The position numbers and the translations under genes were made by a program. A stretch of DNA of 64,000 nucleotides from Shigella phage Sf21, in the sequence record MF327007; one strand, written 5' to 3'. This document shows, one piece after another, positions 2,558-4,805 of this stretch. How positions within the stretch are numbered: position 1 is the first letter of the stretch; every line of letters starts with the position of its first letter. The notes under the pieces are model-generated. The model was not told the DNA's origin. It did no database searches and saw nothing but the letters and a program-made list of their open reading frames with translations.

Positions 2558-3031
2558 TTATTTGATTTGTTTAGCAGACCAAATGCGGTCTTTAATAATT
2601 TTTTGGATGTCTTCAACATATTCAAGAGAGTGAACATGTGGGTTATCTTTGAAACTATAAGCACGAGCTAGCTTTTGGCCTTCAGTTTTGATTATCAAAA
2701 GTTCTTTAAGAATTGCTTCATACCTAGAGATAATTCCTTTAGCAATATTTTTTTCTTGTGCTGCTTTAGGATCAGCCTTAGGAGCAGGTTTACCTGAAGC
2801 CTTTGCAAAAGCAGCTCCAGTAGCAACTAAACTTTTCCAAGCCATACTAACTGCATTCCCTGTAAATCCTTCGGCTTTCATATCACGAGCAAATTGGAAT
2901 CGTGATTCATCGGAAGCATCTTTATAGGAATATTTACCCGCGGCAATGGCAGCTTTTGCAACAGCTTGAATTTCAGTGCTAGATGCTTCATTTAACACCG
3001 CTTCATTTAAAAATTGAGCATATGATTTCAT
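2558..3031 (-). CDS. Lys/Ala-rich protein with internal-protein-like N-terminus (candidate packaged protein)
   Basis: 157 aa; N-terminus MKSYAQFLNE resembles T4 internal-protein capsid targeting sequence; TATAAATA late promoter 37 nt upstream; flanked by near-identical hairpins. Confidence 0.5.
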   Translation of the reverse strand: MKSYAQFLNEAVLNEASSTEIQAVAKAAIAAGKYSYKDASDESRFQFARDMKAEGFTGNAVSMAWKSLVATGAAFAKASGKPAPKADPKAAQEKNIAKGIISRYEAILKELLIIKTEGQKLARAYSFKDNPHVHSLEYVEDIQKIIKDRIWSAKQIK

Positions 3032-3067
3032 CTTATTTCCTGTTTTAATTCGTGGTTTTAATATACT

Positions 3068-3075
3068 TATTTATA
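3068..3075 (-). promoter_or_regulatory. T4 late promoter core TATAAATA
   Basis: exact TATAAATA on minus strand 37 nt upstream of ATG of 2558..3031. Confidence 0.6.
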
Positions 3076-3082
3076 CTAAAAA

Positions 3083-3106
3083 GCCCCAACCTTTCGGTCG
3101 GGGCTA
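3083..3106 (-). terminator. intrinsic terminator hairpin with U-run (near-identical copy of 2529-2552)
   Basis: minus strand AGCCCCGACCGAAAGGTTGGGGCTTTTTAG immediately upstream of late promoter. Confidence 0.65.
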
Positions 3107-3109
3107 AGC

Positions 3110-3414
3110 CTTGCGGCAACCTTGTCGGGGTTCCACCTGCTAAGGCAAGTGTTTGTACGAAACGCCGGGATTCGAACCCGGTTATTAAGCAGTTGACGCT
3201 ACTCAATATTTTTAAAAGGCCATATCTCGACCATATCCGAACGTTCCGTCAAAAACGCTACTCGGCTTACGGCAAAGATATTTCCTCGAATCGATAATTC
3301 GGTGCGCCGTTTCTGCTGTGATGTAAGAGGGCATCAATAAACGCAAAGATTATTAACGCAATTCCTTACTCAGGGAACATCAGTCCGACGACTTACCGGT
3401 AGCGACCCGGTTTC
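3110..3414 (-). ncRNA. candidate small stable RNA region with tRNA-like T-arm (unassigned)
   Basis: ~300 bp without a credible ORF next to the tRNA cluster; minus strand carries CCGGG-TTCGAAT-CCCGG at 3166-3182 with a possible 7-bp acceptor pairing, but no standard D or anticodon arm. Confidence 0.25.
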
Positions 3415-3765
3415 TTAATATTCTTTTAAAGCATCAATATGTTCACGGCGTTTACGCCATAAATCAATTGCTTCATACGCGGATTCAGCATTTCGAATTG
3501 GACGGCATTTATATAAAGATTTGTGATTTTGATATTGCGTAGATAACGGAATTTTATCTAAAAGGTCTTTACGTTCAAAGTATTCGTAACCATCTAAGCC
3601 AAATGAACGATTTTTGAGAAATTGCCAATGACCAAATTCGTTTTGAATATAAATATAATCCGCGTGTTGATAAAGTAAATTAATTTCACGAAATGAGATA
3701 TGTTTTTCATATTCATTGAAGTAAAATGTTAAATCATGAACTACTAAATAAACATTACTTTTCAT
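3415..3765 (-). CDS. hypothetical protein
   Basis: 116-aa ORF; SD GAGGAAAAT before ATG at 3763-3765, immediately downstream of tRNA-Arg. Confidence 0.5.
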   Translation of the reverse strand: MKSNVYLVVHDLTFYFNEYEKHISFREINLLYQHADYIYIQNEFGHWQFLKNRSFGLDGYEYFERKDLLDKIPLSTQYQNHKSLYKCRPIRNAESAYEAIDLWRKRREHIDALKEY

Positions 3766-3783: not shown

Positions 3784-3859
3784 TGGTCGAGGCAGTAGGG
3801 ATCGAACCTACGACCCAGGACTTAGAAGGTCCTTGCTCTTCCTTCTGAGCTATGCCCCG
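3784..3859 (-). tRNA. tRNA-Arg (anticodon UCU)
   Basis: 76-nt cloverleaf read on minus strand; anticodon loop CUUCUAA; T-arm GTAGG-TTCGATC-CCTAC; CCA encoded. Confidence 0.85.
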
Positions 3860-3863
3860 TAAT

Positions 3864-3939
3864 TGGGGTGACCGATGGGAGTCGAACCCATGACTACGAG
3901 AATCACAATCTCGAGTTCTACCAACTGAACTACGGCCAC
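3864..3939 (-). tRNA. tRNA-His (anticodon GUG), no encoded G-1
   Basis: 76 nt; anticodon loop UUGUGAU identical to E. coli tRNA-His loop; discriminator C73; base at -1 is U not G. Confidence 0.7.
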
Positions 3940-4053
3940 ATTAATACCTACTCCAACAATCAAGATGTCTTCACACGAAATTAAGAGAAGAGTGATCAGT
4001 TCAACCCCTATAATCGCGTCAAGTAGATATTAATGTGACAGTTGTCACAAATT

Positions 4054-4128
4054 TGGCGGACGTGATAGGATTCGAACCTATAACCAATCGCTTAACAGGC
4101 GATCGCTCTGCCATTGAGCTACACATCC
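4054..4128 (-). tRNA. tRNA-Asn (anticodon GUU)
   Basis: 75 nt; anticodon stem ATCGC/GCGAT, loop CUGUUAA; T-arm ATAGG-TTCGAAT-CCTAT; CCA encoded. Confidence 0.8.
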
Positions 4129-4132
4129 AAAT

Positions 4133-4219
4133 TGGTGGGGAGTGGTGGAGTCGAACCACCCGAGTCGCAATGACAATGAATTTACAGTCCACACCGCTAC
4201 CTCTACGGGATAACTCCCC
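4133..4219 (-). tRNA. tRNA-Tyr (anticodon GUA), class II with long variable arm
   Basis: 87 nt; anticodon loop CUGUAAA with G-U containing stem; T-arm GGTGG-TTCGACT-CCACC; CCA encoded. Confidence 0.7.
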
Positions 4220-4232
4220 CTAATTCTTAATT

Positions 4233-4307
4233 TGGTGGCCCTGGGTGGAATTGAACCACCATCTGGCGATTATGAGTCGCTTGCTTGAACCTTCCAGCTA
4301 CAGGGCC
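4233..4307 (-). tRNA. tRNA with CAU anticodon (T4 tRNA-Ile-like, or Met)
   Basis: 75 nt; perfect 7-bp acceptor stem GGCCCTG/CAGGGCC; anticodon loop CUCAUAA; CCA encoded. Confidence 0.75.
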
Positions 4308-4308
4308 T

Positions 4309-4384
4309 TGGTGCTGATTGACGGAATCGAACCGCCGACCTTCTCATTACAAGTGAGTTGCTCTACCTACTGAGCTAAATCAGC
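4309..4384 (-). tRNA. tRNA-Thr (anticodon UGU)
   Basis: 76 nt; anticodon loop CUUGUAA; D-arm GCTC-AGTAGGTA-GAGC; CCA encoded. Confidence 0.85.
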
Positions 4385-4389
4385 AAAAC

Positions 4390-4479
4390 TGGCGGAGGCG
4401 ATAGGATTTGAACCTATGAGTCGCCGGAGCGACTGCCGGTTTTCAAGACCGGTGCATTAAACCACTCTGCCACGCCTCC
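4390..4479 (-). tRNA. tRNA-Ser (anticodon UGA), class II
   Basis: 90 nt; anticodon stem CCGGT/ACCGG, loop CUUGAAA; long variable arm; CCA encoded. Confidence 0.85.
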
Positions 4480-4481
4480 AG

Positions 4482-4555
4482 TCTCCGCGGCAGGATTTGA
4501 ACCTACGACATTCTGCTCCCAAAGCAGACGCTCTACCAAACTGAGCTACACGGAG
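4482..4555 (-). tRNA. tRNA-Pro (anticodon UGG)
   Basis: anticodon stem TCTGC/GCAGA, loop UUUGGGA; T-loop TTCAAAT; CCA not encoded. Confidence 0.8.
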
Positions 4556-4565
4556 TAAATTAAAT

Positions 4566-4639
<74 letters not shown>

Positions 4640-4644
4640 AAATT

Positions 4645-4731
4645 TGGTGCGAGAAGTGGGACTCGAACCCACAAGGAAATCATTCCGCAGCATTTTAAGT
4701 GCTGTGCCTTTACCAATTTGACCATTCTCGC
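4645..4731 (-). tRNA. tRNA-Leu (anticodon UAA), class II
   Basis: 87 nt; anticodon stem CAGCA/TGCTG, loop CUUAAAA; long variable arm; CCA encoded. Confidence 0.85.
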
Positions 4732-4732
4732 G

Positions 4733-4805
4733 CTGGGAATAAAGGACTCGAACCTTTGCATCTAGCAGTCAAAGTGCTATGCCTTACCAACTTGGCTAAT
4801 TCCCA
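4733..4805 (-). tRNA. tRNA-Gln (anticodon UUG)
   Basis: 73 nt; anticodon stem TAGCA/TGCTA, loop CUUUGAC; CCA not encoded; abuts tRNA-Leu. Confidence 0.85.

Follow-up and report, generated by a model that had tools for sequence, protein, structure and literature searches.

The segment described here, positions 3110-3414 read on the minus strand, belongs to a stretch of 64,000 nucleotides of Shigella phage Sf21 (record MF327007), which we call the window and which covers the tRNA region of this T4-like phage (Tequatrovirus). ARAGORN finds eleven tRNA genes at 3784-4805 on the minus strand, ten of which are recovered by Rfam at gathering score. Their minus-strand order, Gln-Leu-Gly-Pro-Ser-Thr-Met(CAU)-Tyr-Asn-His-Arg, is the T4 order with extra tRNAs. 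After tRNA-Arg comes an open reading frame of 116 aa (3415-3765, phrog_3355), followed by homologues of two T4 RNAs on the same strand as the eleven tRNA genes: rnaD (T4 species 2 RNA) at 3301..3415 and rnaC (T4 species 1 RNA) at 3156..3294. The 5' boundary of the rnaD homologue is uncertain and could lie as far out as 3418, since the first bases of the homology are shared with the stop codon of ORF 3415-3765. The annotated end of rnaD is separated from the start of rnaC by an A/U-rich spacer of 6 nt, GAAUUA (3295..3300, minus strand; AAAUUA in T4), a presumed processing site.

A 3' trailer follows rnaC at 3106..3155 on the minus strand. It contains a 7-bp hairpin (CACUUGC-CUUA-GCAGGUG, 3134-3151) and is kept both in T4 and in JS98, the latter lacking rnaC. 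The tRNA/rnaD/rnaC unit then runs into an intrinsic terminator (3082..3105, minus strand) with a 10-bp GC-rich stem, a GAAA loop and a U run, the only terminator-like site on the minus strand from the tRNA cluster to the next gene. Beyond it are the late-promoter motif TATAAATA (3075..3068) and a gene of 157 aa (phrog_2280). The position of the terminator fits the published picture of T4, in which a primary transcript of about 1.75 kb gives rise to eight tRNAs and to the species I and II RNAs and terminates beyond the species I gene (PMC2330249). A start of rnaD directly after tRNA-Arg, as in T4 where rnaD begins one base past that gene, was not found in Sf21, in which ORF 3415-3765 intervenes; we take this to be a feature of the context and not of the RNA.

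Identity and distribution of the two RNAs

Species 1 RNA (rnaC) and species 2 RNA (rnaD) are small stable RNAs of T4 that have been known since the 1970s. In the T4 reference NC_000866 both are annotated as misc_RNA just downstream of tRNA-Arg, rnaD at 71053-71171 ('small, stable RNA; species 2 RNA') and rnaC at 70908-71046 ('species 1 RNA'). The rnaC sequences of T4 and the window are identical at 137 of 139 positions (T4 70908-71046 corresponding to 3156-3294 on the minus strand), and strand, length and place, after rnaD and ahead of the operon terminator, are the same. One of the two substitutions turns an A-U pair into a G-U pair in hairpin H2 and the other lies in a bulge of hairpin H1, both of which are described below. 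Positions 4-119 of T4 rnaD align to 3301-3415 (minus strand) and are identical save for one deleted nucleotide; the spacer to rnaC has 6 nt in both phages. Our covariance model of rnaC gives a single match in the window, of 145.9 bits, at 3156-3294. Judged by this agreement of sequence, the minus strand of 3110-3414 almost certainly carries the Sf21 orthologues of T4 rnaD and rnaC.

A BLAST search with 3040-3480 of the window against 50,697 phage records matched 805 of them, nearly all from T4-like phages of Escherichia, Shigella, Yersinia and Salmonella. The preliminary description of this DNA had proposed a structured non-coding RNA and had offered, as one of its options, a counterpart of the small stable RNAs of T4. 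Both ideas are borne out, the segment aligning base for base with rnaD and rnaC of NC_000866. Its presence in these 805 records and its covarying helices show that it clearly did not arise by chance. No homologue of rnaC or rnaD, and no extended match, was found by blastn in 5,426 complete E. coli genomes, and Rfam 15 holds no family that covers either RNA.

Further homologues were collected by BLAST from four different members in turn and by pattern scans, three of viral contigs and one of metagenome contigs. rnaC is found in Tequatrovirus, Mosigvirus, Karamvirus, Kanagawavirus, Moonvirus, Gelderlandvirus, Winklervirus and Marfavirus and also in unclassified Citrobacter and Erwinia phages, which amounts to about ten genera of Tevenvirinae. 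The pattern scans and the four BLAST queries added genera and gave no loop variants beyond those known; several pattern-scan matches in GC-rich contigs were set aside as chance matches. Karamvirus, Gelderlandvirus, Moonvirus and Winklervirus lack rnaD; their rnaC stands by itself, flanked on each side by a tRNA gene (tRNA-Trp and tRNA-Gly, for instance) at a distance of about 5-8 nt. The reverse is seen in JS98 (Dhakavirus), which has kept rnaD and the 3' trailer and lacks precisely rnaC. Since each RNA occurs without the other, the two are separate modules.

Both RNAs are thus already known entities, and our only additions are the structural model and the observation of the missing Rfam family. 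As a discovery, a T4-like phage carrying the T4 stable RNAs is minor. Many GenBank records annotate a 'hypothetical protein' or 'tRNA-Lys' over rnaC/rnaD, and the rnaC alignment and covariance model could mend this mis-annotation as well as the gap in Rfam. RNAC was confirmed by Northern blot in T4 infection, and a transcriptome and proteome study of 2022 places RNAC and RNAD in a class of late-accumulating RNAs 'of yet unknown functions' (PMC9697503). Reviews and recent omics papers likewise give the roles of both as unknown, and we found nothing newer.

Predicted folds of rnaC and rnaD

In the following, rnaC is numbered from the T4 5' end, so that the window coordinate is 3295 minus the position, and the mature ends are those of the T4 annotation. 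The 139-nt RNA is predicted to fold into a four-way junction shaped like a tRNA, with a minimum free energy of -50.2 kcal/mol (z = -3.8), and single-sequence minimum free energy folds give the same junction in most members. We examined the pairing in a MAFFT alignment of 24 distinct sequences and in a model-guided alignment of 27. In the MAFFT alignment 87.9% of cells are in standard pairs, against 40-47% when the partners are slid by 1-3 columns, and changes on both sides occur at 29 of 52 pairs; none of 500 shuffles reaches the observed values. The model-guided alignment leans toward the model, and MAFFT gives nearly equal numbers: with model guidance 89.9% of cells are paired, against 38-49% when slid, both-side changes are seen at 30 of 51 pairs, and again 0/500 shuffles reach the observed values, all of these counts coming from one phage subfamily in which many covariation 'cells' share ancestry. 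On this comparative evidence the overall fold is very probably a covarying, tRNA-shaped four-way junction. When the whole stretch of 340 nt is folded at once, the minimum free energy structure pairs the 5' end of rnaD with distant parts of rnaC. We regard that fold as spurious because each RNA folds by itself and other phages carry one without the other.

The place of the D arm is taken by a long hairpin, H1 (3216..3286, minus strand; positions 9-79), with a bulge of 3-4 nt under its apical stem. Double changes that keep the pairing are seen at 14 of 19 pairs of its lower stem and at 5 of 6 pairs of the apical stem. An A/U-rich single-stranded linker follows, UUUAAAA (3209..3215, minus strand; positions 80-86), which together with the flanking C (3216, position 79) and A (3208, position 87) reads CUUUUAAAA; it is unpaired in every fold, and its sequence and length vary. 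Hairpin H2 (3183..3208, minus strand; positions 87-112) has a 10-bp stem and a 6-nt loop, CGUCAA, with both-side changes at 8 of 10 pairs and 92.6% of cells paired; H1 and H2 are the best supported parts of the fold. A113 alone separates H2 from the T-arm (3165..3181, minus strand; positions 114-130), which consists of a 5-bp stem and a UUCGAAU loop (CCGGG-UUCGAAU-CCCGG). The 11-mer GGTTCGAATCC occurs only twice in the 64-kb window, in this T-arm at 3165-3181 and in tRNA-Asn, with 0 copies expected in 100 shuffles. The T-stem is paired in 27 of 27 sequences, its middle pair being U-A, G-C, A-U or U-G. Kanagawavirus 'mime' and Winklervirus depart from the loop consensus, with UGCAUGC or UGCAUUC, so classic T-loop recognition cannot be essential everywhere. 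Work on species 1 RNA in the 1970s-80s is said to have found T and pseudouridine in this loop. The junction bases GAGGA, GGCC, AAAAU and UAACC are conserved across about ten genera.

The two ends of rnaC can pair with one another. The 5' strand CGAUUCG (3287..3293, minus strand; positions 2-8) faces the 3' strand CGUUUCG (3158..3164; positions 131-137), which is followed by U138 and A139 (3157-3156), the 3' end annotated in T4. Over seven positions the pairs are C-G, G-C, R-Y, U.U, U.U, C-G and G-C, that is, positions 2-4 and 7-8 pair with 135-137 and 131-132. The five Watson-Crick pairs are present in 24/24 sequences and both U.U positions are invariant; at the third pair the T4 clade has A-U and all others have G-C (CGGUUCG / CGUUCCG). 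The helix abuts the T-stem directly, as in tRNA, and in tRNA numbering C2 would be position 1, G137 position 72 and U138 position 73. The tail after the acceptor strand is UACAA in Sf21 and most genera and UCCAA in Marfavirus. The three bases past U138 are therefore ACA in most genera and CCA in Marfavirus, where the acceptor strand is followed at once by an encoded U-CCA. In addition, the rnaC covariance model matches genuine tRNAs from end to end, if weakly (E 0.006-0.25). The comparison suggests that the 5' and 3' ends form an acceptor-like helix stacked on the T-arm, a minihelix of tRNA type, which we rate as likely and not as proven, because its support is one compensatory event together with the topology. 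The 5' end annotated in T4 (U1) is one base upstream of the first acceptor-like pair, which counts against taking a canonical RNase P cut for granted.

The apical loop of H1, UUGACG (3247..3252, minus strand; positions 43-48), and the loop of H2, CGUCAA (3193..3198, minus strand; positions 97-102), are perfectly complementary in 27/27 sequences and invariant in every genus but Marfavirus. All seven Marfavirus members have UUGGCG/CGCCAA, a coordinated exchange of A-U for G-C at one pair. Loop-loop cells are paired at 100%, against 16-51% when the partner is slid, and the energy of the isolated duplex comes to about -5.5 to -9.4 kcal/mol, with UUGACG/CGUCAA at about -5.5 to -7.5 kcal/mol. The match is not accounted for by simple inverted duplication, since T4 and Marfavirus have unrelated stems beneath the loops. 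As with the acceptor-like helix, the support is a compensatory change in a single lineage, the rest being invariance, which is silent about pairing. We lean towards the view, which these alignments favour, that the loops pair within the molecule; an intermolecular version, in a dimer, may also occur. Up to the conserved bulge of 3-4 nt, H1 counts about 20 bp in its lower part, and a stack of the apical stem (4-6 bp), the loop-loop helix (6 bp) and H2 (10 bp) would come to about 20-22 bp. With such similar helix lengths, two rods lying side by side could close a ring at the junction.

In the rnaD homologue a 5' hairpin, ACCGG-GUCGCUA-CCGGU, is accompanied by a long irregular one whose closing helix is GUCGUCG / CGGCG-C-AC. 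Among seven distinct variants both the 5' hairpin and the closing helix are invariant and variability is highest in the central part, while the distal part of the long hairpin is swapped or remodelled among phages yet still paired. RNAalifold predicts 34 pairs from these seven variants, 8 of them with changes on both sides. The minimum free energy of -32.6 kcal/mol (z = -1.6) is unremarkable alone, and the role of rnaD may be only that of a by-product. During adaptation of phage BW1 to the host ECOR34, three independent evolved lines shared one SNP in the rnaD region (PMC12685909). This convergent change hints at a contribution of rnaD to host-specific fitness.

Processing, possible functions and alternative readings

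Taken as a whole, the explanation that we find reasonably probable is that of rnaD/rnaC orthologues at the tail of the tRNA operon, with rnaC shaped like a tRNA, processed and acting as a mimic. The layout is one of co-transcription: both RNAs form the minus-strand tail of the tRNA operon transcript, which the terminator at 3082-3105 brings to a stop. The minihelix would make rnaC a substrate for the tRNA-maturation enzymes of the host, its 5' side being cut by RNase P or RNase E and its 3' side trimmed by an exonuclease. Excision from the polycistronic precursor would leave a nuclease-resistant, stable rnaC, and these cuts would also set free rnaD, a structured spacer on its upstream side. 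A link to tRNA processing is favoured by the position of rnaC between tRNA genes in several genera and by the U-CCA of Marfavirus. T4 processing work of the 1970s-80s reportedly described a dependence of species 1 RNA on RNase P or RNase E, as well as self-cleavage of the species 1 precursor. We consider the chances that rnaC is processed by the host tRNA-maturation route to be about even. rnaC has no 7-nt anticodon loop and therefore cannot decode. The mature RNA would most likely be a tRNA mimic that occupies a tRNA-binding factor of the host or the phage, although a role as mimic or decoy is a tentative suggestion. Somewhat more speculative is the idea that rnaC represents a non-Rfam, tRNA-shaped and non-decoding RNA family of the enterobacterial Tevenvirinae, with two helices locked by their six-base loop-loop pairing in place of the D and anticodon half, that serves as a decoy or sponge for a tRNA-recognising factor, with rnaD contributing host-specific fitness; the target may be, for instance, a host tRNA-targeting defence nuclease or an enzyme of tRNA maturation or modification.

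The likeness to tRNA raises the question whether the segment simply holds a tRNA or a remnant of one. The preliminary description had pointed to a T-arm, to a possible acceptor pairing of CGGAACG with CGTTTCG, and, as one option, to a degenerate or intron-interrupted tRNA. The tRNA-like character does hold for rnaC. The T-arm is real and on the minus strand, at 3181..3165 and not at 3166-3182, which is one base off. The two heptamers also exist (3248..3242 and 3164..3158) and are complementary with one G-U, but their pairing (positions 47-53 with 131-137) fails the comparative test: no compensatory change supports it, and among 24 sequences the third pair is broken in 18 and the fourth in 13. 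CGGAACG consists of the last two bases of the UUGACG loop and the 3' strand of the apical stem of H1, so that this internal acceptor cannot coexist with a stem that covaries strongly (5/6 pairs change on both sides). The segment is not an intron-interrupted tRNA. The 5' strand of the likely acceptor-like helix is the RNA's own 5' end (3293..3287) and not the internal CGGAACG. Nor do standard D and anticodon arms lie between the heptamers, as had been remarked: ARAGORN reports no tRNA or tmRNA within 3110-3414, and the Rfam scan that had been suggested gives nothing in the segment at gathering score. A permissive Rfam scan of the segment returns only insignificant matches (tRNA-Sec, isrK and anti-hemB, E about 1-4), the sole tRNA-clan match being tRNA-Sec over 3157-3249, whose 16.6 bits (E=3.9) fall short of the gathering score, 47. 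The case for a degenerate or misannotated tRNA, about 93 nt long (about 3157-3249) and with the two heptamers as its acceptor, could draw on this match, on the pairing of the heptamers in the T4 type, and on records such as phage G4507, which annotates a 94-nt tRNA-Lys(ttt), and phage G29, which has a tRNA-Lys under the match. It could also draw on the T4-type linker, which contains CUUUUAA, a sequence that we take to be that of the tRNA-Lys anticodon loop. However, CUUUUAA is not kept outside the T4 type, and the 5' heptamer itself becomes CGCUGCU in KaAlpha, CGAUGCU in PEi20 and CGACGUG in Marfavirus. Together with the rejection by ARAGORN and Rfam in the window and the conflict with H1, this makes such a tRNA very improbable. 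The same linker had been considered as a clue to a PrrC decoy, an idea that was dropped because the linker is not conserved in other genera. A small protein-coding gene, the 'hypothetical protein' that many GenBank records place over the match, has short open reading frames to offer (3045-3206 on the minus strand, 3052-3297 on the plus strand and 3212-3346 on the minus strand). These are short and start with TTG or GTG instead of ATG, in line with the earlier remark that no ORF is credible; no frame is open in all 24 homologues, and substitutions in the stems are pairwise compensatory. The rnaC homologues, at 141-145 nt, differ in length by 1-4 nt, so the indels are not multiples of three. We regard a protein-coding gene as the least probable reading.

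The main rival to the tRNA-mimic reading is a purely cis-acting element, in which the segment would only punctuate the tRNA operon transcript for processing and stabilise its 3' end, and the RNAs set free would be inert by-products. Its location as the 3'-most part of the operon, directly ahead of the terminator, suits this idea, as does the resemblance of rnaD to a structured spacer. JS98 lacks rnaC and Karamvirus-type phages lack rnaD, with no obvious replacement, and T4 deletions of the tRNA region are said to be viable on laboratory hosts. In Karamvirus, Gelderlandvirus and Winklervirus, however, rnaC is internal to the tRNA array, where flanking tRNAs already provide processing sites and an end-protector is superfluous. 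Loops that are invariant save for one coordinated change, and junction bases conserved over about ten genera, exceed what punctuation would need, and in T4 the RNAs accumulate as discrete stable species (PMC9697503). A purely cis-acting role thus seems to us unlikely, and a degenerate tRNA, a small protein and a trans-acting regulator are all less likely than it. The last of these, an RNA that base-pairs with host or phage mRNAs, could explain the SNP shared by three independent BW1 lines (PMC12685909) and would agree with the description of RNAC and RNAD as late-accumulating small RNAs (PMC9697503). Against it, the most conserved stretches of rnaC that look single-stranded are the two loops, which are complementary to each other and so probably occupied; apart from the A/U-rich linker, no conserved unpaired stretch that could act as a seed is visible. 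In rnaD variability peaks in the central part, and blastn gives no extended E. coli match, which is a test of homology and not of short complementarity. We consider this regulator improbable.

The value of the comparative fold lies in what it offers to experimental studies. The species 1 and 2 RNAs have gone for about 50 years without an assigned function, and the fold provides concrete mutations. Testable features are the terminal acceptor-like helix with its tandem U.U, the paired loops, the placement between tRNAs and the encoded CCA of one genus.

Comparison with known tRNA-like RNAs

With canonical tRNAs, rnaC shares a T-arm with GGUUCGAAUCC, comprising a 5-bp stem and a 7-nt loop of the UUCRAnY type, and, probably, a helix of seven positions, formed by both ends, that directly abuts the T-stem. 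It is also located inside tRNA gene arrays, and its model gives weak cross-matches to tRNAs. H2, one base upstream of the T-arm, is placed like the long variable arm of class II tRNAs (RF00005 / RF01852). In contrast to a tRNA, rnaC has a 71-nt hairpin and a 10-bp hairpin with a 6-nt loop instead of D and anticodon arms, its acceptor-like helix contains two U.U mismatches, and CCA is not encoded except in Marfavirus. The segment also stays below the thresholds of Rfam and ARAGORN.

Another comparison is with tmRNA, whose precursor is listed among the substrates of RNase P (PMC11143913). As is likely for rnaC, tmRNA combines an acceptor helix of its 5' and 3' ends with a T-arm; like rnaC it has no normal D stem or anticodon arm, and it too is a stable RNA, matured by tRNA-processing enzymes. 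The differences are clear: the third pair of rnaC is A-U or G-C and not G3.U70, there is no tag reading frame and no series of pseudoknots, the RNA has only 139 nt, and ARAGORN finds no tmRNA.

The tRNA-like structures of plant viruses, the M3 RNA of phage phi80, YrlA and mascRNA are tRNA mimics that are processed by RNase P. Such mimics are listed as RNase P substrates in PMC11143913. In our Rfam scan the matches to YrlA and mascRNA fall on real tRNAs and none in the segment, and no similarity of sequence or model to any of these mimics was detected. The likeness that rnaC may have to these RNAs is one of principle, drawn from general knowledge of them: a tRNA-like module recruits the enzymes of tRNA metabolism to an RNA that does not decode.

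Loss and divergence of rnaC among related phages

Phage JS98 (locus L004, 1495-1735) retains rnaD, the 3' trailer and the terminator, with rnaC cleanly absent from between them. JS98 is a natural rnaC deletion, and is open to phenotypic comparison with its relatives.

Where rnaC is present, it varies between genera. Its tail in the Marfavirus loci from Klebsiella phages (L015-L019, L021-L023) reads CGUUCCG-U-CCA-A, and UACAA is found in other genera. In the Marfavirus tail, both a discriminator and CCA are encoded immediately 3' of the acceptor-like strand. The CCA-bearing tail and the UUGGCG/CGCCAA loop pair both occur in this one lineage. The 'mime' type of Kanagawavirus (loci L009, L025, L037, L039) and Winklervirus (L045, L046) carry UGCAUGC or UGCAUUC as the T-loop in place of UUCGAAU, with the T-stem and all else retained. 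These lineages can apparently dispense with canonical T-loop recognition.

In phage G4507 (locus L002, 1730-1823), G29 and many other records, the rnaC region is labelled 'tRNA-Lys(ttt)', or rnaC and rnaD are overlaid with hypothetical proteins. The tRNA-Lys label probably stems from the T4-type linker CUUUUAA together with the non-conserved internal pairing (CGGAACG with CGTTTCG) that the preliminary description had proposed.

Terminator-like hairpins around the operon end

Two near-identical terminator hairpins, AGCCCCAGCCGAAAGGTTGGGGCT and AGCCCCGACCGAAAGGTTGGGGCT, lie on the minus strand at 2527-2550 and 3082-3105 and bracket a 157-aa gene (2558-3031, phrog_2280). Both are followed by TTTT, with GTAT a few bases further on; the two hairpins are a repeated terminator cassette.

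We also observed a terminator-like site on the plus strand at 3395-3411, where the opposite strand of the rnaD 5' hairpin reads ACCGGTAGCGACCCGGT and then a T-rich tail, TTCTTAAT. This resemblance is probably incidental; the site could also act as a stop for antisense transcription arriving from the plus strand.

An extra ORF and a gap in the tRNA cluster

In T4 a single base is found at the junction of tRNA-Arg and rnaD, whereas Sf21 carries there a minus-strand ORF of 116 aa (3415-3765), a member of phrog_3355 (E=9e-52) of unknown function. Karamvirus phages also have a phrog_3355 member in their tRNA region, downstream of a tRNA-Met. The ORF appears to be mobile cargo of tRNA regions.

Between tRNA-Asn and tRNA-His, 114 nt on the minus strand (3940-4053) lack a tRNA call and contain a perfect hairpin, TGTGACA-AC-TGTCACA, at about 4026-4041. 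In T4 the gap of the tRNA cluster, between tRNA-Ile and tRNA-Arg, is occupied by the homing endonuclease gene segB; by analogy, the gap here is perhaps a site left empty or scarred.
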